Shown here piece after piece: positions 1-23,966 of a stretch of 64,000 bases of DNA. Under the pieces are notes generated by a model. It saw only the letters and a program-made list of their open reading frames with translations, was not told the origin of the DNA and ran no database searches. The position numbers and the translations under genes are program-made. The stretch is from contig JALNYL010000006.1 of the NCBI GenBank assembly GCA_023229865.1, positions 5,597-69,596 on the forward strand. The letters are read 5' to 3'. How positions within the stretch are numbered: the first letter of the stretch is position 1; each line of letters opens with the position of its first letter. Source of the stretch: Minisyncoccota bacterium (GTDB taxonomy: Bacteria > Patescibacteriota > Minisyncoccia > Phycocordibacterales > UBA1550).

Positions 1-126
1 AAATGCAAATCAATCGAGTAACCGAGACAATGTCCAGTTTTGTAGGCGAGCTACAAGCTATCGCTCAAAATGCGCTACCGCTACTGAATAATATCGAACA
101 ATTGGAATTGCCTAAAGATGAGCTCT
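1..126 (+). CDS. 3' end of an upstream ORF (frame 3, ...SFVGELQAIAQNALPLLNNIEQLELPKDEL*), truncated by window start; stop 18 nt before next gene (operon partner of ATPase)
   Basis: open frame from window edge to TGA at 124-126, tight spacing to ATG at 144. Confidence 0.3.
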
Positions 127-143
127 GATTCAATTGTGAATAA

Positions 144-2345
144 ATGCCGGGTAGTAGAAAGAAGTGGGGCGTAGAAATGAAGACTCTGAAAGTTAGGTTG
201 GAAAATTGCTATGGGATTGCTAAATTAGACGAGGAGTTCAAGTTTGAAAAGTCTTATGCAACTTTGATTTACGCGCCCAACGGCGTAATGAAAACATCTT
301 TTGCAAAGACATTCTATGCGATATCAAAAGGCAAGCAACCTGAAGAAAAGATGTTCAACAAAACACCTAGTTTTGATATCAAAGCGGATGGTGTAGACAT
401 TCTTCAAGACGACATATTAGTCATCAATCCATTTGATAAGAACTTTGAATCAGTCAATATTTCAACTCTATTAGTAAACTTAGACAAGAAATTGCAATAC
501 GATGGTATTTTCAAAGATATCCTGAATGCAAAAAAGAAGCTTGTCATCGAACTTAACAAGATATCTAAAATACCAAAGGAAAGTATTGAATCGCAGCTAG
601 CAAAAGATTTAGGTTGTGATGATATTTTTTCTGCGATTAGAACACTTCAACAACTCGGCCTGGGCAATGAAGCTTATTTCTCGCTTCAGTATCAGACAGT
701 TTTTGATCCTAAAGTAGTCGAGTTGCTTGGTAATGAGGAGGTTAGGAATAACATTGCCGAATATGCTGAGAAATACAACTCACTATTTGAAGAATCGACT
801 GTTTTCAAGAGAGGGATATTCAATCCAGCAAAAGCGAGCTCTGTTTCTACAGAGCTTAAAAAGCAGATGTTTTTTGAAGCAAAGCACAAAGTAATTCTTG
901 ATGGCAAAGTCGATCCTATCGATGAACACAAGGTACTAGAACAATCCTTCGAAGCAGAAAAGGAGAAAATTCTTGGCAATGGCAGTTTGCAAGAAATATC
1001 AAAGAAAATCATTGGTGGCGTTGCGTCTATCAAGGCATTTCAAGATGTGCTTGAGAGTTGCCCGGAAATTGCGGCCGAACTTGCCAATGTAGACAATTTA
1101 AGAAAGATTGTTTGGTGCTCGTATTATGAAACCAACAAGGTTCTGTTTGATGACTTGCTGGCTATTTACGAGAAACACAAACAGCAGCTCATCGATATTG
1201 AAAATGCGGCAAATTTAGAATCCACCTTGTGGCACAAAGCACATAGAATTTTCAAAGAGAGATTCCAAGTTCCATTCTCAATGGAGATAGCAAATCACAC
1301 TAATGCCATTCTTGGTACAACCAAGCCGGTCGTCGTTTTTACTTTTAATAGTGAAGATGGAACGCCCATAAAGTTTAATAGAGGCGAGCTTGATTCACTC
1401 GACTTCTTATCTATGGGTGAGCGTAGGGCTATGTATCTTCTCTATGTGATTTTTGAATTGCTTGCTAAGCAAGCAAGCCAAAAGCAAGCGGTTATTATCA
1501 TCGACGACATCGCCGATTCATTCGATTACAAAAATAAGTACGCAATTATTGAATATCTTAAGGAGCTTGCGCATCAAGATTTATTCCGGCTAATTGTTCT
1601 AACGCACAATTTTGACTTCTATCGCACGTTTCAAGGCCGAGTTCTAGATAATGCACAATGGGAAAATTCATTTATCGCTCAGAAAACTGAAGGCAGTATC
1701 AAGCTGTTAAGGGGTGGGGACAAAGATGTTTCAAATCCATTTACATTGTGGAAAAAGAACTATCATAAAAATGGAGTAATGCTGATTTCCATGATTCCTT
1801 TTGTGAGAAATCTAATAGAGTACAGAGATGGGACAAAGTGTGATGAGTATAAGAGACTGACGTCGATGCTCCATATAAAGGATGACACATCAACTCTTAA
1901 GCTGTCAGATCTCGAGAGTCTAATTAGTGGCGTCGTAAAGGGCGAAGCACTAGATGCGACATTTGATCAAAATCTTTGTGTGCTTAATCATATATACAAT
2001 ACAGCTGACGAACTCTGCAATATCGCCAAAGAAGATGAGATATGTTTAGAAAACAAAATTGCACTTTCAATTGCCGCCAGATTGAAAGCTGAGGAATATA
2101 TGTGGTCAGTCATAAAGGACAAATCGTCAATTAGTGGATCACAAACTGGCAGGTTATATGATCGATGGATTAGTGAGAATGATCCGAACGACGTGAATTT
2201 TGTTGCGCTTAGAGGTACGCTAAGTCAGGTTATTTTAATGACCCCTGAAAATATCCATTTGAACTCATTTATGTATGAGCCGTTAATGGATATGTCTAGC
2301 CACCATTTAGTTAAGCTATATCAGGAATTGATACTATTGCACTGA
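144..2345 (+). CDS. ABC/AAA_13-type ATPase with long insert between Walker A and signature motif and a ~230-aa C-terminal domain (RloC/PrrC-like architecture); candidate defense/abortive-infection protein
   Basis: degenerate P-loop YAPNGVMKTSFAKTF; ABC signature LSMGERRAMYLL; Walker B/D-loop IIIDDIADSFD; H-loop LTHNFDF; C-terminal Rx5H (RLTSMLH) HEPN-like motif; low GC like flanking region. Confidence 0.5.
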   Translation: MPGSRKKWGVEMKTLKVRLENCYGIAKLDEEFKFEKSYATLIYAPNGVMKTSFAKTFYAISKGKQPEEKMFNKTPSFDIKADGVDILQDDILVINPFDKNFESVNISTLLVNLDKKLQYDGIFKDILNAKKKLVIELNKISKIPKESIESQLAKDLGCDDIFSAIRTLQQLGLGNEAYFSLQYQTVFDPKVVELLGNEEVRNNIAEYAEKYNSLFEESTVFKRGIFNPAKASSVSTELKKQMFFEAKHKVILDGKVDPIDEHKVLEQSFEAEKEKILGNGSLQEISKKIIGGVASIKAFQDVLESCPEIAAELANVDNLRKIVWCSYYETNKVLFDDLLAIYEKHKQQLIDIENAANLESTLWHKAHRIFKERFQVPFSMEIANHTNAILGTTKPVVVFTFNSEDGTPIKFNRGELDSLDFLSMGERRAMYLLYVIFELLAKQASQKQAVIIIDDIADSFDYKNKYAIIEYLKELAHQDLFRLIVLTHNFDFYRTFQGRVLDNAQWENSFIAQKTEGSIKLLRGGDKDVSNPFTLWKKNYHKNGVMLISMIPFVRNLIEYRDGTKCDEYKRLTSMLHIKDDTSTLKLSDLESLISGVVKGEALDATFDQNLCVLNHIYNTADELCNIAKEDEICLENKIALSIAARLKAEEYMWSVIKDKSSISGSQTGRLYDRWISENDPNDVNFVALRGTLSQVILMTPENIHLNSFMYEPLMDMSSHHLVKLYQELILLH

Positions 2346-2409
2346 ATTGCTACTGGGATTTTATTTCTTTATTCTGTGCCCCTACCTTCGCTTGACCAGA
2401 ACTACCCCG

Positions 2410-2745: not shown

Positions 2746-3117
2746 CTATTTGCTTGCCAGTAGCGCAACCAAAATGCCCAGCCCGATCAATAACGCGGCC
2801 TTTGCAGCATCGTTATCGTCGGTTGGTTTCTCATTAGGAACCTGAACGCCTTTTCTTGCGAGTTGCTTCGCTAGGTTATCTGCTTCGGACAGGATGCTTT
2901 CGGGAGAATCCCCGAGTGCGTGAGCCAACGAGCGAAGATGTGAGACCGTCAAGGCGGTTTGGCCGGACTCAATGCGCGAGTATGCTGATTGGGTTAACCC
3001 AAGCGCTAGGGCTATCTCCCCCTGACTCTTCTTGCGAAGATCGCGGCGCTTTTGAATAACTTGCCCAATAAGCGCGTTATAGGGAAGAACAGCGGTTGGC
3101 ATTTTAGGGGTTGACAT
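2746..3117 (-). CDS. XRE-family (Cro/CI-type) HTH transcriptional regulator with C-terminal transmembrane tail
   Basis: SQGEIALALGLTQSAYSRIESGQ HTH motif; C-terminal hydrophobic AAKAALLIGLGILVALLASK. Confidence 0.8.
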   Translation of the reverse strand: MSTPKMPTAVLPYNALIGQVIQKRRDLRKKSQGEIALALGLTQSAYSRIESGQTALTVSHLRSLAHALGDSPESILSEADNLAKQLARKGVQVPNEKPTDDNDAAKAALLIGLGILVALLASK

Positions 3118-3162: not shown

Positions 3163-3573
3163 ATGCTTATGATACCCAATAACTCCTCTGCCATCAATCC
3201 AATCTCACACCGTGCAGGTACGGTTCTATCTACAAGCCGCTTCCTGTACAGACACCTTGGAATCCTTACTGGTCGTTTCATTAATGGTTTCCCGACCGTC
3301 ATTTCAAACTCCGGGGATGGCGGCATGGTCATAGAAGAATCCCTGTCGCAATTCCAAGGAACAGGAGACCTTCAAGTGGTCGGCTATCTTGGCACACTAC
3401 CTCAAGACGTGGTACTCGCAAGAGCGCAGGCAAAACTCGGAAGCAAATATTCCCTGTTAACTTGGAACTGTGAGCATTTTGTGCGACATGCACACGGCCT
3501 CAAACAAGAAAGCCCGCAGGTGGTTGCGGCGGTGTCATTGTTTGCGCTACTGTTGGTCGTTTCTCGCCTTTAA
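3163..3573 (+). CDS. NC-domain (LRAT/H-rev107, NlpC/P60 superfamily) protein with C-terminal hydrophobic tail
   Basis: catalytic motif YSLLTWNCEHFVRHAHG (NCEHF Cys/His) typical of LRAT-like acyltransferase/papain-fold family. Confidence 0.65.
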   Translation: MLMIPNNSSAINPISHRAGTVLSTSRFLYRHLGILTGRFINGFPTVISNSGDGGMVIEESLSQFQGTGDLQVVGYLGTLPQDVVLARAQAKLGSKYSLLTWNCEHFVRHAHGLKQESPQVVAAVSLFALLLVVSRL

Positions 3574-3623: not shown

Positions 3624-5444
3624 ATGAACGCACAAAAAAGTGTTTCAAAGGATTCTAAACGTGTCGGTATCTGGATTCGCGTCTCCACAGAAGACCAGGT
3701 GAGAGGGGAGAGCCCCGAGACGCACGAACGCCGTGCGCGCCTCTACGCAGAAGCCAAAGGCTGGGATGTGGTCGAGGTGTACCGCCTTGACGCTCTCTCG
3801 GGCAAGACCGTCAAGGAATACCCTGAAACAAAGCGCATGCTTGCCGACATCGCCAGCGAACACATCACCGGACTCATCTTCTCCAAGCTAGCCCGACTCG
3901 CTCGAAATACCAAAGAGCTTCTCGATTTCGCTGAGATATTCCGCGACTGCAATGCAGACCTCATTTCACTTGCAGAGTCGATAGATACCTCGACCCCCGC
4001 AGGACGTCTCTTCTACACCATGATCGCAGCTATGGCCCAGTGGGAGCGCGAGGAGATAGCGTCCCGTGTTGCTGCATCAGTCCCCATCCGCGCCAAGATG
4101 GGCAAGCCCTTGGGTGGTCAATCTCCGTTTGGGTATCAATGGAAGGAAGGCAAGCTCATTCCCGATGACGCCGAAGCACCCGTCCGCAAACTCATGTATG
4201 AGCTCTTCCGCGAGAATGAAAGAAAGAAGACCGTAGCGCGACTACTCAACGAACGCGGATATCGCACGCGGAACGGTTCTCTGTTCACCGATACGACCAT
4301 CACCCGTCTCCTTCGTGATCCCACCGCTAAAGGTGTCCGCCGTGCGAACTACACCGTCTCCAAAGACAGCAAGAAATCATGGGGCCTAAAACCTGAAAAT
4401 GAATGGGTGCTTCATGAGGTAGAAGCGATCATTTCCGAAGACCTCTGGAATGAGGTCAATGCAATTCTTGATGCTCAACAAAAAAAGGGAAAGCGTGTTG
4501 CGCGTCAGGTCATCCACCTGTTTGCAGGACTCACGTATTGTGGCTGCGGGCAAAAAATGTATGTGCCATCGAACACTCCAAAGTACGTTTGCTACGACTG
4601 CCGCAACAAGATTCCTGTCGTTGATCTAGAGGGAGTATTTCACGAGCAGATCAAAAACTTTTTCTTCTCTTCGGAGGAAATTGCCGAACATCTATGCAAG
4701 GCAAACGCAACTATTCACGAGAAAGAAGAACTGCTCCAGGTTCTTCTCAACGAACAGAAGAAGCTCACTGCCGAGGTGGACAAGTTGTACGACCTCTACC
4801 AAGGGGGAGCGATTGATAAGGCGGGATTCGGGGCGAAATACTACCCGCTTGCAGAACGAGGGCGTCAGCTTGATGATGAAGTTCCTCAGGCGCAGGCAGA
4901 GCTCGATGTACTGAAAATCTCGCAGCTTTCTCAGGAAGAGATCATCACCGGCGCACGCGATCTTTACTCTCGCTGGCCGGAACTCCCCCAGGAAGAGAAA
5001 CGTCGCATCGTAGAGGCCATCACCGACCGAATCGTCATCCATCCCGACGAAGTAGAGATCAACCTCTTCTATGCGCCGGGAACCTCTACACCATCAGCGG
5101 GAACCCCGTTCACCCCAGAATCCTCAGGGGGCTCATCTACACCCCCTGTAACCCCGTCTTTAAATGGTGGCAGGAAGGCAACGGAACTTCATAGACGCGT
5201 TGCCTTTTTACCATACGTCCGCGTGTGCCTCAAATCCCTGAGAAAGAAGGATTTTGACTTTGAGCCGCGTACCCTGGGCGAGCAAATCAAGCGGCGGCGT
5301 CTGGAACTCTGCCTGTCACAAAAGGAGGTAGGGGAGATGCTGGGTGTAAGCTCGTTTACTGTGCTGAATTGGGAAAAGGGGAAGACAATGCCAAACGAGG
5401 AGGCCATGCCGCGCATTGCATCCTTTTTAAGTGGTGGTGCATAA
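3624..5444 (+). CDS. large serine recombinase (resolvase/invertase catalytic domain + recombinase domain + zinc ribbon + coiled coil) with extra C-terminal XRE-type HTH
   Basis: [12 protein letters not shown]...[10 protein letters not shown] catalytic Ser region, [23 protein letters not shown]...CYDCRNK zinc ribbon; strong SD GGAGGA 5 nt upstream; C-term [31 protein letters not shown]. Confidence 0.9.
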
Positions 5445-8652: not shown

Positions 8653-10029
8653 TTAGCGCCCATCTGATGAATTAATTAATGCAGCCTCGGCATCTGAAAT
8701 CAGAATCGCGCGGCCAATCTTGCCCACATATTTTTCTATGTTGAATCGCACAGCATCACAGGGAGTCAGCGACTGATCCATGAAAATTCTAGGGTGAGCA
8801 CATCCCCCCATACAAAGAGGCAAAACATTGCAACTCTTGCATCGCTCATTTTCAAACGGAGAATAATCTGCCCATTGCTTATCGATATTGGAAGCAGACG
8901 AGGGCAATGGTTTATAACCCTCTGAAATATGCCCTGACTGCTCAGTAACAGCCCCTACGCTATGCCAGCAGCGACTGATTGACCCATCTGGCCCGATGAC
9001 AATCATCCTGTGCGCAGAGGCTGAACATGCTGCGGATTTAGGAGTTAACTTCCGCGCCAACATTTGCATGCCGTTATCGCTTACTGATAGTGCAAGATTT
9101 TCAAGTGTCGCGTATTCGCTCCGCCCCAGGCTGCATCCATGACCACAAGGGCCATCAGAAGGATTCCGCTTGCCGTCTGAGTTGGTTGCATACCCAGCAT
9201 CTCCCTCGTAATCATAGACGTGGGACAACACAACGGTTGGCACAGAGTTGGCGCGAAGATCATCCAAAATATTTTCAACTTCGTGCGCATTCTTGTTCGT
9301 TACATTAATCCGCACTTGAATATCCAGGTGATCTTTGGATTCCAGAAGATTCTTGTATATCCTGGAAGGCTCACCGGTGCTTGTTCGCATCCCCCGCAAC
9401 CCAGTTTGCTCTTGAAGGGAGTCAAAGCATATCTGAACATTTCTCATGCCAAGCTTGTCCAGTTCCTTCGCGGTGTCTTGGTCGAGCAGTGCTCCATTGG
9501 TGACCATAGTAACGTCGAGTTTACCGCGAGCACTTCTGACAACCTTGCGGATATCCTCAGTCAATTTGATTATTTGCGCCTTACGCAATAATGGCTCTCC
9601 GCCAAACCAGGTAACCAAGAAGCGCCGCCAGCCAAACTGGATGCACGATTCAATGTACTGCAACAATTGCTCCTCCACCTCTGGGCGCATTATGGCACTC
9701 GTGCGATACGACGCTTGAAAGCAATATTCACACGAATAATTGCAGGCGAGTGTGGGAACAAGGGTCAGGTGGAGCGTGTCTCCTCCGCGCGAAGCAAGAA
9801 AGGTTTTCTTGATGAGCTCGATTTCGTCGTCTTTGTGAAGGAATCCCATGCGGCGCAATTGTCGCGGATCGATAGCCTTTTTTAGATCACCATCCCCACG
9901 AAGAATTTCTGCATTTTCTGACGAGAGAAGAGCGAAGGTTCCTGTGCGTGCGTTATATCCAATAACACCCTCATCTCGCTCAATGAAATAATTGTAGCGC
10001 GAACGAACATAGTCGAATCGCTTAGACAT
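8653..10029 (-). CDS. radical SAM / SPASM-domain peptide-modifying enzyme (anSME/ranthipeptide-sactipeptide maturase-like)
   Basis: CNYSCEYC (CxxxCxxC) cluster; C-terminal SPASM cysteines C...CWH and CKSCNVLPLCMGGCAH; N-terminal ~100-aa peptide-recognition-like extension. Confidence 0.85.
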   Translation of the reverse strand: MSKRFDYVRSRYNYFIERDEGVIGYNARTGTFALLSSENAEILRGDGDLKKAIDPRQLRRMGFLHKDDEIELIKKTFLASRGGDTLHLTLVPTLACNYSCEYCFQASYRTSAIMRPEVEEQLLQYIESCIQFGWRRFLVTWFGGEPLLRKAQIIKLTEDIRKVVRSARGKLDVTMVTNGALLDQDTAKELDKLGMRNVQICFDSLQEQTGLRGMRTSTGEPSRIYKNLLESKDHLDIQVRINVTNKNAHEVENILDDLRANSVPTVVLSHVYDYEGDAGYATNSDGKRNPSDGPCGHGCSLGRSEYATLENLALSVSDNGMQMLARKLTPKSAACSASAHRMIVIGPDGSISRCWHSVGAVTEQSGHISEGYKPLPSSASNIDKQWADYSPFENERCKSCNVLPLCMGGCAHPRIFMDQSLTPCDAVRFNIEKYVGKIGRAILISDAEAALINSSDGR

Positions 10030-17359: not shown

Positions 17360-18520
17360 TTAATTCCTCACCGTCGTCGCACTAAACGGCTTACTCGGTG
17401 CGCCGTCGATCATGAGCTTGAGATATATGTCATGGTTCGGAATGTTCACCAAGTCCTCAGGTGAAAACACCGGCTCGAATTCCCGTGCAAGCGTCCGCGC
17501 ATCCTCTGCTCCTACGCGAAAGGCAATGAGCGTACCGACATTGCCCAGGACTGCATGCATCACCTCTCCTTCAAGTTGGTGAAGGTGCTGATTGGCAAGC
17601 ACGAGCCCAAGTTTGAATTTGCGAAGTTCCGACACAGTGTTCGCCACAGAAAGCGTCGTGAAGTTCTGGAATTCATCGAGGTGAAGATAAAACGGCCGAC
17701 GTGAATGTTCAGGTAGTTCGCTTCTGCTGAAGGCAGCAAGGTTGAGTGTGGTTACCAAGAGCGCCCCCAAGAGATTTGCGCTGTCGTCTCCCAATCGCCC
17801 CTTGGCGAGATTCACGATGAGGATCTTCCCTGAGTCCATGATGCGGCGAAAGCTGAGATCAATTGGTGGATTCGTAAGGATGCGGAAAAGCCTTGGGTCA
17901 GCAAGGAACGCGCCGATCTTGTTCTGGATAGGGGAGATCATCTCCTGGCGGTAGCGAGGGTTGTAGTCTTTGAACTCGTGTTCCCAAAATTCGCGCACCT
18001 GCACGTTGGAAATATTTTTCACTACGTTGTGTCGATACGCAGTGTCGCTAAACATGCGCAAAATGTCGGGGAGCGTCGCATCGCCGTACTCAATCAGAGC
18101 GTAGAGCGTGTTCCTGAGCACATGCTCCATGCGCACACCCCAAGCATCATCAAAGAGTTTCTTGAGCGCCTCCATGAGTCCTGAGACGGCAAGTGGCACC
18201 TTGTCCTTCCGCACCTGTCTGAGGGGGTTGTAGCCATACGGCTGATCGATATCAGCGGCATCCAGGTAGACGAGGTCGTCAGATCGCTCCTGGGGAATCC
18301 TGGCTATGAGACGCTCCGCCATATCGCCGTGCGGATCAATGACACACACTCCGTGCCCGTGTGCAATGTCCTGCTCTGCCAATGTCTCCATGAGCGTCGT
18401 CTTGCCGGTGCCGGTTTTTCCGATGACGTACAGGTGAAACAAGCGATCATCACTCTTGATGCCGAACCGCACCTTCTTTCTTCCGTTGGTCTCCGCAAAA
18501 TAGCTGATGTTGTTCTTCAT
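17360..18520 (-). CDS. HerA/DUF87/TrwB-like P-loop ATPase (386 aa)
   Basis: Walker A VIGKTGTGKTTL followed by VIDPHGD; Walker B YLHLDEFQNF. Confidence 0.65.
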   Translation of the reverse strand: MKNNISYFAETNGRKKVRFGIKSDDRLFHLYVIGKTGTGKTTLMETLAEQDIAHGHGVCVIDPHGDMAERLIARIPQERSDDLVYLDAADIDQPYGYNPLRQVRKDKVPLAVSGLMEALKKLFDDAWGVRMEHVLRNTLYALIEYGDATLPDILRMFSDTAYRHNVVKNISNVQVREFWEHEFKDYNPRYRQEMISPIQNKIGAFLADPRLFRILTNPPIDLSFRRIMDSGKILIVNLAKGRLGDDSANLLGALLVTTLNLAAFSRSELPEHSRRPFYLHLDEFQNFTTLSVANTVSELRKFKLGLVLANQHLHQLEGEVMHAVLGNVGTLIAFRVGAEDARTLAREFEPVFSPEDLVNIPNHDIYLKLMIDGAPSKPFSATTVRN

Positions 18521-19785: not shown

Positions 19786-20583
19786 TTACTCGACCCACCT
19801 TACCTCGTAGTAATGTAAGAGTCCTGGCTTGGGAATAATCCACTTTGCCAAGCCATTTTTATCAATTTGTTTTACTTCAGAGCCAAAAGATGTTTTCGCT
19901 CCAAAATCCCCATAATGTTCACAAACAGCCTCTTTCGATGTATATGTTAAAGGTAGCTTAAGCTCCAAATGCAGCACATCTGTTGGCTCATGTATTGTTG
20001 CAGAAAATGATCGCAGTGCTTTTTGTTGTGGGTCGACAAAATCCCACACTACTTCCGCCGTGACAGTTTCGTTTTTTTGTAAATTCCTTGAAAAACGAAT
20101 ATCAAAAAAGGTCCACACGTTCCTTTGAAATGCGGTTTGTACGCACTGCCCAGGAATGGCGCTACTGATGCTAATAGATCCTTGCCCAGTCCATTGATAA
20201 CGATCTCTGTAGGCGTCAAGGCCATTTCGGAGAGCTTTCAGCTTATATCGCCTTCTGTGTTGAATCTCTGTTGCGGAACGGTACTCATGATAAATATGTT
20301 TTTCTATAAGATGAAAATCAGGTTCAAGCCGTGGAAAGGTTGGTCGATGGCGACGGAAAGCGTTGTATGCCCAATTGATTGTCAAAGTAGATATTATAAA
20401 AAATAAGGCAAAAAGAGGTAACACATATTCATTAAGGAAATTCTGAGTCTTGCCAATTGAATCTGCGCCAATAAAGGAAACTGACGATGCAGCTACGATT
20501 ACTCCAGCACCCTTGATAATTTCAATTAGTAGATTCGAACCAATATCTACAGAAAATTTTCGTTTGAAACTTTCTAGGTTCAT
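19786..20583 (-). CDS. hypothetical 2-TM membrane protein with ~190-aa soluble C-terminal domain
   Basis: ATG 20583 with SD GAGGGGA (track start is GTG); two N-terminal hydrophobic helices. Confidence 0.5.
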   Translation of the reverse strand: MNLESFKRKFSVDIGSNLLIEIIKGAGVIVAASSVSFIGADSIGKTQNFLNEYVLPLFALFFIISTLTINWAYNAFRRHRPTFPRLEPDFHLIEKHIYHEYRSATEIQHRRRYKLKALRNGLDAYRDRYQWTGQGSISISSAIPGQCVQTAFQRNVWTFFDIRFSRNLQKNETVTAEVVWDFVDPQQKALRSFSATIHEPTDVLHLELKLPLTYTSKEAVCEHYGDFGAKTSFGSEVKQIDKNGLAKWIIPKPGLLHYYEVRWVE

Positions 20584-20657
20584 TATGTCCCCTCGTTTCA
20601 GATACAGTTTGATTGGCACTCACAAGTGATTCGAATTGTGGCCGCCTGAATAATAAC

Positions 20658-21185
20658 CTAACTGTTATCTTCTCCAAACATCGTCTCTGTGAAGCCCTCA
20701 AAATATGCATGAACGCATGCTATGTGCCCAGCGACTTCATCCCTCAATTCCTTCTCTGTTGTCGAGGGAGGGAGGGCGAGCCATCGCCGCGCTTGTCTTT
20801 CAATACTCATTGAATTGGCATGTCGATCTAATACGCTTGGATGTATGCAGGCGAGTATCTCAATGGTGGCCTGGGTACGCAATTCATTGAGTGAGAATAT
20901 GTACCCGAGCATCTCTTCAGCGATTCTGTAGTACGCGTCATCACAGCCATCCTCGGCGCACCATGCCGGCAGATCAATATCGGAAAGTACGAGTTCAAGC
21001 TTCTGGTCGAATGTGAGGTGCTCAACACGGAGAACATGCCGATTTGGAACAAGATTGCGAACATATTCTTCGAGCAAAATTTCCATGCGATGATGCCCAA
21101 CGAGAATTATTTCCGTCAGGTCGTGTGCCCTTTGGAGAGCAACGTATATTGATGTCTGTTCAAAATCTTCGTCGCGGATGTTCAT
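20658..21185 (-). CDS. hypothetical all-alpha protein (175 aa) with C-terminal Rx5H motif (LRDEVAGH) - weak HEPN-like hint
   Basis: ATG start; operon with downstream 2-TM protein; motif seen, family not recognised. Confidence 0.45.
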   Translation of the reverse strand: MNIRDEDFEQTSIYVALQRAHDLTEIILVGHHRMEILLEEYVRNLVPNRHVLRVEHLTFDQKLELVLSDIDLPAWCAEDGCDDAYYRIAEEMLGYIFSLNELRTQATIEILACIHPSVLDRHANSMSIERQARRWLALPPSTTEKELRDEVAGHIACVHAYFEGFTETMFGEDNS

Positions 21186-21279
21186 TGTTGTTCTGTGCCG
21201 AAGCAGTCAGTAAAACACGTCTGCTCAATCGCAGAGTATCTCCATAGGAATTTTACGTAAAATGCTGGTGGAATTTTAA

Positions 21280-22653
21280 ATGTTTTCAGGCGCGGAGTAT
21301 CCTTCTATGACGATTATTGCTGAGCTCCTAAAGCCCTATGTGCTGTTCCTGCAAGGAGCTGCCTATAGCATTGGACAGACATTGGATGGCTTGGGAGTCC
21401 TCTCGTCAAACATAGTCGAGACAGATGTCAATGGACAGATCATAGGAAGCTATTTGTCGCCATCTGAGGCTTACATTTCTATCCTGCTTGGTTTGTTGTT
21501 GCTCTACTTAATGCTTCTAGTTGGAGCACTCTTTCTTTCTGGTTATGTTTTAGGGAAATGGAGAGGAGCCTTAATTGCCACATTCATAATTTCCCTCCCT
21601 GGAATCGCCTCACTTCTCGGGATCTTTCCAAACATAAATTACTTGCCGGATAAATTTGTAATACACGGAACAGGGACCCTTGGGAGTGTTGGGGGGATGT
21701 TCCCTCTTGTGTTGATTGGATTATTGACAGGATGGAGTCTTGTACTCCTTCTGAGTGACTTATTTGATCTGGGTGATAGATTCCGACATTACTTCGATCA
21801 CTTCTGGTACTCCATGGCAGTGCTTGCAGGAATTTTCTTTGTTGCCGACACGGGAAATTCTGATGTGTTGCGTGAACTTGACGAGGCAAATCAACTTTCC
21901 AAGCAAGCGAGCATTTATCTCCTTCGGGAAGTAAGAGCATATGACGCTCAGTGCAATAGAACGCCATCCATTGGAAAAGTGTCTTGCTCTTGGGCCTCAG
22001 ATGTGCAACAAGAGCTGAGTGATTACGTGGTGGTAAGTCCACAGTCCTTTGCTAACTGGGGACCTAAATCTGCTTCTGACATTTACGACCCCTACAGGGG
22101 AAATATCTCGTCTGATCAAATCCAGCAAATTAGGCACGAGCTTAAGGCATACAACAGCACACACTGCCCTGTGAAGGACATCGGAAGGGGTTGGTCCCAG
22201 CAGTCGCGCTCATCAAGTGTTTGCCTCAGACCCCCAAGCGCCTTCTGCACTGCGTTTCCGGAACCTCTTGATGGGGTGTCTCAGAACAATACCATATTCC
22301 GAACTGTTGCCATTTCTAACGAGTGCGTTGTCGCATCACTAGTAGCCTTGCGCGCAAGACAGGAGAAGCTCGTTAACAAGGTTTCTGAGATCGAAGAATC
22401 TAAGCACTCCCGGTGGCTCTTCTTTGCACTTTTTTCTGTAGTCGCGGGTGGCAAAGTTGCAAATGCATCTGCAAGAGTCGCGGAGCTTGATAGAAGGAAT
22501 CAGCTTGAAAAGCGGCGTCTGCTTAAGTTAGTCCGCAATCTTTTGTCCATTGCCTGGAAACTAATTCAGCGCTCAGCCTCCACCGGACGGCGGATTTTGT
22601 CTTCCTCTTTAAGATTAGTGGGCCGAGTTATTGCTGCTAGTTGGAAGCGCTAA
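21280..22653 (+). CDS. hypothetical polytopic membrane protein (457 aa) with Cys-containing loop domain and basic C-terminal tail
   Basis: multiple hydrophobic helices; no recognised motif. Confidence 0.5.
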   Translation: MFSGAEYPSMTIIAELLKPYVLFLQGAAYSIGQTLDGLGVLSSNIVETDVNGQIIGSYLSPSEAYISILLGLLLLYLMLLVGALFLSGYVLGKWRGALIATFIISLPGIASLLGIFPNINYLPDKFVIHGTGTLGSVGGMFPLVLIGLLTGWSLVLLLSDLFDLGDRFRHYFDHFWYSMAVLAGIFFVADTGNSDVLRELDEANQLSKQASIYLLREVRAYDAQCNRTPSIGKVSCSWASDVQQELSDYVVVSPQSFANWGPKSASDIYDPYRGNISSDQIQQIRHELKAYNSTHCPVKDIGRGWSQQSRSSSVCLRPPSAFCTAFPEPLDGVSQNNTIFRTVAISNECVVASLVALRARQEKLVNKVSEIEESKHSRWLFFALFSVVAGGKVANASARVAELDRRNQLEKRRLLKLVRNLLSIAWKLIQRSASTGRRILSSSLRLVGRVIAASWKR

Positions 22654-22671
22654 TTCTTCCCCATAGTTCGC

Positions 22672-23523
22672 TCACTTTGACGTAGGGGAGTTGCTATTGA
22701 GTGTTAGGTTCCCCAAGAAAGTATTCCACTCCTTTTTGCTATCTTCTTTGAGCGATCTAATGCAAGGTTGTCCTGGCTTGAACATCCACTTTGAGCTTCT
22801 GATCAAGACTCCCACGACTTTGGGAACATCATTCTTGGGTGATTCCTTTGCAATATGCACTCCAATAATTCCACGTATTGCATTCCCTTCGACTTTGAAA
22901 GTTACGATGAAAGGCTCGTTCGACATGAGCCGTACGCATCCATCAATTTGGGGATCACAGGACCACCAATATATTTCCAGTTTTGTGAGATCGAGAATCA
23001 GGTGGAGGCATATATGCAGCCACCTCCCAAATTCTGATGGGTTGATGGTCTCGTCAATTTCTTTTGCTTCGTTTGGTAGTAATTTCCTATCGATATGAGA
23101 CGATAGTTTGTTCCGCGCAATGCTCACAGGAGCCTTGAAATCATGTGGGAGCATTGCGCTGAACTGTTTGCTTATGGCCTTGATTTGCTCGTACTGCTCA
23201 TCGCTTTTCAATAACTTTGCAGTGTCCTTGTTACACAAAATATCGTTAAGAAGATCATCGATGGACATTATGAGTGAATGGAGGGGCGTTATGGCAATCT
23301 TGAGACGGCGCTTCTTCTTCGTCGCGTTCTTCTGGTGAACCGCTTCCTCTAATAGTTCCTCAAGGTCTCGCAAGCACTCAAGACATCGCCATAATTTGTG
23401 TGCCGACGAGTTTGATGGGTGCCAAGCATTTACCTCAGCTTCGCCTTCCGCAAGCGAGCTCACAACTTCTCGGTCAATGGTGTCGAGATATACTGGTATC
23501 CCTCTGTTTTCTTCTTCAGACAT
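22672..23523 (-). CDS. hypothetical soluble protein (~283 aa)
   Basis: ATG 23523 preceded by GGAGAGG (track start 23562 is TTG); no recognised motif. Confidence 0.45.
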   Translation of the reverse strand: MSEEENRGIPVYLDTIDREVVSSLAEGEAEVNAWHPSNSSAHKLWRCLECLRDLEELLEEAVHQKNATKKKRRLKIAITPLHSLIMSIDDLLNDILCNKDTAKLLKSDEQYEQIKAISKQFSAMLPHDFKAPVSIARNKLSSHIDRKLLPNEAKEIDETINPSEFGRWLHICLHLILDLTKLEIYWWSCDPQIDGCVRLMSNEPFIVTFKVEGNAIRGIIGVHIAKESPKNDVPKVVGVLIRSSKWMFKPGQPCIRSLKEDSKKEWNTFLGNLTLNSNSPTSK

Positions 23524-23966
23524 TACCTCTCCGCTCATATTGAACCGCATCACTAGTTTCAACCACTTCTATTGCCAAACCGGAACATTTCCACTTCTAC
23601 ATATCAACACTCACAGCAAGTAGCATTGTCACATGCAATATAGCAACGAAGTCATACAGAAGTTTATCGCTGCCTACGAACGCGCGCATGGAGAAACACT
23701 CACGCGTGAGGAAGCGATAGTCATGTTTGGAAGACTTGTTCGACTCTATCGCGTATTGCTAATACCTCTGCCTGATGACGATGATCAGTCTACAGGGCTT
23801 CTTCTGTAGTATCTGGCTCCAGTGCTTCGAGCACTTGTTTTTGCAGTACTCGGATATTGTGTAAGACGTGTTCTGTTTCAGTGTCTCCAGTTTCAATTAA
23901 TGTGCGAACGTACTTCATGTACCCGCACAAAACGTAAAGAAAAACAGTGCCTGCGCACTGTTTTTT

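Follow-up and report, generated by a model that had tools for sequence, protein, structure and literature searches.

PrrC and RloC are among the known systems closest to the gene examined here. PrrC is the EcoprrI-linked tRNA-Lys anticodon nuclease, a protein of 396 amino acids (aa) in which an ATP-binding cassette (ABC) ATPase without an insert is followed by a C-terminal alpha domain; it carries a PrrC box and is always linked to a restriction-modification (R-M) system. Its catalytic triad, R320-x3-E324-x31-H356, was defined experimentally (PMC1484252). RloC, a Rad50-like ABC ATPase that ends in an anticodon nuclease, shows the pattern R-x3-E-x36-52-H and has a CxxC zinc hook in its coiled-coil insert (PMC2610378). 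The PADLOC authors derived the PDC entries, a set of phage-defence candidates, from genes lying within known defence systems and released them untested (Payne et al., bioRxiv 10.1101/2024.01.29.577857). We analyzed a stretch of 64,000 nucleotides (nt) from a Minisyncoccota bacterium (contig JALNYL010000006.1, positions 5,597 to 69,596), referred to here as the window, which carries an ABC ATPase gene at its left end (177–2345, + strand). The preferred reading, with a probability of about 0.6, is that this intact gene belongs to a horizontally mobile, usually stand-alone, candidate anti-phage family in which the ABC head controls a C-terminal effector. The family is PDC-S46, to which the protein belongs with very high confidence.

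Family assignment and the ABC head

The PADLOC PDC-S46 profile matched the protein from end to end (E 2.7e-239, 794.6 bits), aligning residues 12–729 of the 733-aa open reading frame (ORF) with positions 1–715 of 719, and the same model matched 64 of the 64 diverse homologues tested. No detectable difference from the PADLOC entry was found in the full-length profile match, the single-gene organization and the location near or inside R-M and other defence systems. The catalogued system does not include the upstream DUF2130 gene with which the window copy is paired. A sequence-only reading of this DNA had proposed a new ATPase-HEPN abortive-infection module. A defence-island ABC ATPase of the AAA_13 group was supported, but the family is not new, having already been listed by PADLOC as a candidate. 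The PDC-S46 protein probably has a role in defence.

Ten of ten homologues scored above the gathering threshold of 36 bits of AAA_13 (PF13166), which we take to be the Pfam family that includes PrrC. Their scores were 49–68 bits, and the matches covered residues ~190–550 against profile positions 265–648 of 713. The window protein itself gave no AAA_13 match at E<=1 in a Pfam scan, while the 90%-identical homologue P0002, one of the ten, scored 51.5 bits (E 9e-14). This miss is probably an effect of the HMMER filters and is a caution for automated annotation.

The longest form of the gene in the window is a + strand ORF of 733 aa (144–2345), the length given by the sequence-only reading. The ORF is real, but comparison of sequences indicates that the most likely start is ATG 177, giving an intact gene of 722 aa plus stop, rather than ATG 144. 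ATG 177 is preferred because NCBI holds an identical 722-aa protein (P0001, "MAG: AAA family ATPase [Candidatus Pacebacteria bacterium]", from a metagenome-assembled genome, MAG, on a contig of 70,898 nt), because the PADLOC profile alignment (at residue 12 of the 733-aa ORF) and the family alignment both begin there, and because this ATG is common to the 80%-identical homologues L001 and L003, in which the sequence upstream of it differs.

An AlphaFold2 model of the protein, based on 97 sequences, had a mean pLDDT (predicted local distance difference test) score of 85. The best Foldseek matches of the model in the Protein Data Bank (PDB) were the heads of Rad50, SMC and RecN and PtuA of Septu/retron complexes, with E down to 8e-7. 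In the model, a helical insert divides a Rad50/SMC-like ABC head, and an all-alpha C-terminal domain follows the head, so that the Rad50/RloC-like topology suggested earlier was borne out. The ABC motifs were found where they had been placed: the Walker A variant YAPNGVMKTS at 270–299, the ABC signature LSMGERR at 1407–1427, the Walker B and D-loop VIIIDDIADSFD, with Asp-Asp rather than Asp-Glu, at 1491–1526, and the H-loop THN at 1602–1610, all on the + strand.

Conservation was assessed in an alignment of 171 family members with 36–90% identity, to which all counts out of 171 refer. In the P-loop, Y32, A33, N35, G36, M38, K39 and S41 were present in 170, 168, 170, 168, 170, 171 and 171 sequences, respectively. 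L411, G414 and E415 of the signature were invariant, as were D443, D444, S448, F449 and D450 of the Walker B and D-loop and H477 and N478 of the H-loop (171/171). The protein thus shows the ABC set of Walker A Lys, signature, Walker B Asp, D-loop, H-loop and head fold, with a Walker A that deviates (A...M-K-T-S): Ala replaces the first Gly, and Met replaces the Gly before the Lys. A Met that is invariant but for one sequence in place of the usual Gly (Met38, 288–290) is unusual for a P-loop under strong selection. The P-loop had been described as degenerate. Because it is conserved across the 171 sequences, YAPNGxMKTS is instead a selected family trait and not a sign of decay.

The helical insert in the ABC head comprises residues 93–365 (453–1271, + strand). 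In the model, it consists of a 29-residue outgoing helix (102–130) and a 42-residue return helix (321–362) with a helical cap between them, and its length is tightly conserved at 268–288 aa across the alignment. A helical insertion of ~380 aa had been claimed; the insertion is present, but its proper size is ~270 aa, and ~370 aa separate the P-loop from the signature. A CxxC motif, as in a zinc hook, was found in the insert of 1 of the 171 sequences and not in that of the window protein.

The C-terminal domain and the anticodon nucleases

The C-terminal all-alpha domain (residues 515–722; 1719–2342, + strand) is family-specific and is presumed to be the effector. PDC-S46 shares its ABC C-lobe with mad8, AbiLi, ATPase-Toprim, PtuA, AriA and LmuB. 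With PDC-S06 the likeness (E 2.6e-14, residues 421–584) goes beyond the ABC C-lobe and takes in the ~70 residues that follow the H-loop, as far as the LTSxLHxK segment. The last ~150 aa, with RLKAE and TPENIHLNSFMYEP, occur only in PDC-S46-type proteins and not in PDC-S06 or other defence ABC ATPases. A profile of the last 148 aa, searched against 1.84 billion cluster representatives, matched 1140 proteins (949 at E<=1e-10), in which the domain was always C-terminal, either in ~720-aa proteins or in shorter, fragment-like proteins. Since it always stands at the C-terminus of such proteins, the module is confined to the PDC-S46-type family.

Modelled alone, the domain of ~210 aa reached a pLDDT of 89 and a predicted template modelling score of 0.88, and it folded into ten helices after a beta hairpin. 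At an overall identity of ~36–40%, it contains at least 20 invariant residues. The invariant polar set includes R544-N545, T562, H566, K568, K627, R635, E639 and Q656-T657; R635 and E639, each present in 171/171 sequences, lie in RLKAE (2079–2093, + strand). The most conserved segment of the whole protein is TPENIHLNSFMYEPLMD (2241–2291, + strand), which forms a loop ahead of a short helix in the model. In this TPENIHxNSFMYEPxxD segment (T689–D705), T689, I693, H694, N696, F698, M699, E701, P702 and D705 were present in 171/171 sequences and E691 in 169/171. Judged from this density of invariant residues, the domain is probably catalytic.

One explanation of these features is that the protein is a true PrrC/RloC-type anticodon nuclease, with a tRNA-cleaving HEPN RNase as its C-terminal domain. 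AAA_13 membership and the Rad50-like topology agree with this, as does the PrrC-like embedding of a subset of the genes in type I R-M operons described below. R635-x3-E639 and H694, all three invariant, are separated by a spacer of 50–60 residues (mode 53), and R635-x3-E639-x50-60-H694 can be set beside the PrrC and RloC triads. This resemblance is no more than a lead. RxxxE in a helix is a low-information pattern, and the spacing lies mostly beyond the RloC range. The PADLOC PrrC model matched 8 of 64 members weakly, and these matches are assumed to fall in the ABC part. The top two Foldseek matches of the C-terminal domain were both HEPN domains, those of sacsin (3o10_C, E 1.4, probability 0.41) and TT1696 (1ufb_A, E 1.7, probability 0.30), but these E values are not significant.

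HEPN domains are defined by a conserved Rx4-6H motif in which the Arg is followed by a polar residue (PMC3710099). The string RLTSMLH, which had been read as an Rx5H motif of this kind, is present at 1854–1874 (+ strand), but the position of its Arg is occupied by Arg in only 10 and by Lys in 64 of the 171 sequences, and the next residue, instead of being polar, is an invariant Leu. Only T562, L565 and H566, plus K568, are conserved there. No conserved basic residue was found 5–7 positions upstream of H566 or H694 in the 171 sequences, and H694 is preceded at -5 to -7 by T, M and L. The HEPN-defining motif is therefore lacking.

Compared with RloC, PDC-S46 is alike in the AAA_13 membership of the homologues scored, in an ABC head split by a helical insert, in an alpha-helical C-terminal domain, in being usually stand-alone and occasionally R-M linked, and in carrying an invariant pattern of the form R-x3-E...H. 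It differs in having no CxxC zinc hook, in an insert of ~270 aa that forms a short stalk plus a helical cap, in a Glu-to-His spacer of 50–60 rather than 36–52 residues, and in having Ile, not Ser, before the His. PADLOC gave no RloC match for PDC-S46, and the C-terminal domain lies outside the AAA_13 model. With PrrC, PDC-S46 shares the order of ABC ATPase and C-terminal alpha domain and, in a subset of loci, the position in type I hsd operons. Besides the insert and the PrrC box, the difference lies in R-M linkage: PrrC always has it, whereas PDC-S46 mostly does not (the linked loci include L034, L059, L047 and L062). For the window copy, the 2.3 kb available show no R-M neighbour; its flanks are the DUF2130 gene and a recombinase-bearing segment. 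On this evidence, an anticodon nuclease of the PrrC/RloC type is rather unlikely.

Several points weigh against the preferred reading. The name PDC-S46 was found in no searchable paper, no experiment on the family was found, and a later cold-seep study that tested PDC candidates did not include it. The Met that replaces the P-loop Gly might impair nucleotide binding. The canonical Rx4-6H motif is absent at either invariant His in the 171 sequences. For the C-terminal domain, nothing significant was obtained with Foldseek against the PDB or in a structure search of BFVD, no match was found in profile searches of the PDB, and a Pfam scan of 33 C-terminal domains at E<=10 gave no consistent family and no HEPN-type family. 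The comparison of the C-terminal region with HEPN, PrrC and RloC proposed with the sequence-only reading likewise ended with no profile that matches the domain.

If PDC-S46 acts in defence, analogy with PrrC, RloC and other ABC ATPases of defence systems suggests that the ABC head and insert would form a sensor or switch that depends on nucleotide. The Asp-Asp Walker B and the Met-Lys P-loop would suggest that ATP is bound and slowly hydrolyzed. The switch would hold the C-terminal effector inactive and release it on sensing infection or the failure of an associated R-M activity; the released effector would abort the infection by damaging a macromolecule of the host or the phage. By analogy, the most likely target would be RNA, cut through a His/Arg/Glu center (R635, E639 and H694, possibly with H566 and K568). 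Tentatively, and with odds well short of even, the domain could represent a new effector fold or chemistry that is not HEPN and is governed by a Met-Lys P-loop ABC ATPase. PDC-S46 would then be a mechanistically new single-protein abortive-infection system, a subset of which perhaps uses DUF2130- or RmuC-type nucleases as a second component.

Genomic context and the DUF2130 gene

Among GTDB species representatives, at least 584 carry the family; they are spread across the bacteria and include a few archaea. The family was also found on 29 plasmids and on one phage-labelled contig. The flanking genes differed in size and orientation across 73 species loci, and no fixed partner was found. In every context examined, the GC content of the PDC-S46 gene was below that of its flanks (0.32–0.38 vs 0.37–0.57). 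The Pfam families of the immediate neighbours were mostly R-M or defence families, including N6_Mtase (6), Methylase_S (4 upstream and 2 downstream), HsdM_N (3) and Mrr_cat (3), together with NgoPII, HpaII and DpnII restriction enzymes, Type ISP enzymes, nSTAND3, PglZ and ResIII. In L034 and L059, the homologue lies between the type I methyltransferase gene hsdM (4-nt overlap) and hsdS (5–6 nt gap); in L047 and L062, hsdS comes immediately before the homologue, and the two genes overlap by 4 nt. This embedding in hsd operons is the PrrC arrangement, and the R-M association that had been expected from PrrC was thus seen in a subset of the homologous loci.

The close homologues (54–80% identity) are stand-alone genes with upstream intergenic regions of 370–800 nt. 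They adjoin integrases, transposases, relaxase-accessory genes, a NERD gene or an SbcCD-like pair. In L001 (4989–9717) and also in L002–L004, the 80%-identical homologue is followed by a pair of Metallophos and AAA_27 genes (SbcCD/YhaNO-like) and then by LPD7 and NikA/MobC-like genes, which suggests a mobilisable element with several defence-like cargos.

This distribution bears on the possibility that the protein is a housekeeping DNA-repair ATPase of the RecF/RecN/SMC type without a defence role. Weak matches to SMC_N (E 1e-4) and to RecF C-terminal motifs (E 3e-7, well short of the cut-off) were obtained, and the Walker B is Asp-Asp, as in RecF. All scores for housekeeping families were, however, far under their thresholds. 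The patchy distribution across bacteria and archaea at 36–60% identity, the consistently lower GC content, the occurrence on plasmids and beside integrase, transposase and relaxase genes, and the embedding in R-M operons all argue against such a role, which we regard as highly improbable.

Upstream of the ATPase gene, the window begins inside a DUF2130-family gene, of which the 3' end, 41 codons plus TGA (126–128), remains (3–128, + strand). We take DUF2130 proteins, like those of the RmuC family, to combine a coiled coil with a domain of the PD-(D/E)XK type. The name DUF2130 occurs in an article on the PD-(D/E)XK superfamily (PMC3424549). The family was recognized through a Logan contig (L006) with 89% nt identity to window positions 1–2348, in which the upstream ORF extends to at least 163 aa and matches Pfam DUF2130 (E 9.4e-33); the upstream gene sought by the sequence-only reading was identified through this relative. 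That reading had described an upstream gene ending at 1–126 and translationally coupled to the ATPase gene. The truncated, co-directional ORF is there, but its TGA lies at 126–128, 15 nt before ATG 144 and 48 nt before ATG 177, and the spacer to the probable ATPase start (129–176, + strand), which holds the alternative in-frame ATG 144, does not fit coupling. Co-transcription of the two genes in the window genome is plausible from the sequence because they are co-directional and no promoter- or terminator-like site was found in the 48-nt spacer. The 41-aa DUF2130 tail shared no 5-residue words with any protein in a collection of 5.8 billion in which the adjacent ATPase is present; the source record may label the DUF2130 gene a pseudogene or leave it without annotation.

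Elsewhere, DUF2130 genes stand directly downstream of the homologue in L051 (10169–11602), L045 (3459–4661) and L053 (10233–11507), with gaps of -4, -1 and 60 nt, respectively, and ~1.5 kb downstream in L084. RmuC-family neighbours were found once upstream and once downstream of a homologue. An obligatory DUF2130-ATPase operon is not supported, as DUF2130 is adjacent in ~5 of ~80 lineages, in either order, and is absent from those lineages' nearest relatives. Because the DUF2130-linked copies are not mutual closest relatives, and because L083, 93% identical to L084, is without DUF2130, the pairing is recurrent but optional. The full-length DUF2130 neighbours in L045, L051 and L053 gave no PADLOC match, and DUF2130 itself may be an uncatalogued defence-island gene.

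These neighbours would be expected if the ATPase were a sensor only, with a C-terminal domain that regulates or binds a partner, and if killing were carried out in trans by a DUF2130- or RmuC-type nuclease or an R-M enzyme, as in Septu PtuA-PtuB and PARIS AriA-AriB. The DUF2130 genes upstream in the window and L006 and downstream in the four loci above, the RmuC neighbours, the tight overlaps with hsdM and hsdS, and the structural matches to PtuA of Septu/retron complexes are in line with this arrangement. However, ~85–90% of the loci have no DUF2130, RmuC or R-M partner, the nearest relatives of the DUF2130-linked copies can do without it (L083 vs L084), the close homologues stand alone, and the PADLOC class is a single-gene class. 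The many invariant charged and His residues of the C-terminal domain are also more like an active site. We consider a sensor-only ATPase quite unlikely, and the reading of a stand-alone candidate defence gene with its own effector domain is preferred.

The downstream boundary and the DUF2130-PDC-S46 cassette

Homology to L006 ends at 2348, 3 nt past the stop codon of the ATPase gene, and at this breakpoint (2346–2349) the GC content rises from 0.38 to ~0.50–0.53. A different segment, probably mobile, begins here, in agreement with the earlier statement that the ATPase gene abuts another element: both composition and homology break right after the stop codon. The segment 2349–19700 (GC ~0.50) looks like an integrative mobilisable or conjugative element. 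It encodes an XRE-type helix-turn-helix protein with a hydrophobic tail (2746–3117, - strand), an LRAT/NlpC-P60-like protein (3163–3573, + strand), a large serine recombinase fused at its C-terminus to an HTH_3 domain (3624–5444, + strand), a radical S-adenosylmethionine protein (8653–10029, - strand) and a TraD/T4CP-like ATPase (17360–18520, - strand).

The sequence-only reading had further proposed that this element split an original defence island, and that the ATPase gene resembles four low-GC genes on its other side at 19.8–23.6 kb. Neither proposal was supported. The four ORFs at 19786–23562 (277, 175, 457 and 296 aa) have GC contents of 0.40–0.48 (mean 0.451), which is ordinary for the window, and gave no Pfam match at E<=1e-3; in L006, the housekeeping gene tex lies downstream of the ATPase gene, and the window contains no tex. 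Given GC contents of 0.379 for the ATPase gene and 0.464 for the rest of the window, the ATPase gene, and not the element, is the compositional outlier. The label of the source MAG, Candidatus Pacebacteria (Candidate Phyla Radiation), may deserve checking; in the L006 relative, tex lies next to the ATPase gene and the DNA has a GC content of 0.57.

The left end of the window is thus a low-GC, horizontally acquired cassette of a DUF2130 gene plus a PDC-S46 gene that borders a recombinase-bearing segment. What appeared to be a new ATPase-HEPN module is a specific, testable member of a catalogued, uncharacterised candidate defence family. This family is extremely well conserved and large: its proteins form 1140 clusters at 50% identity, and at least 584 species representatives have a copy. 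Its effector domain, which was assigned by none of the libraries searched, together with the Met-Lys P-loop, is the part worth experiment.

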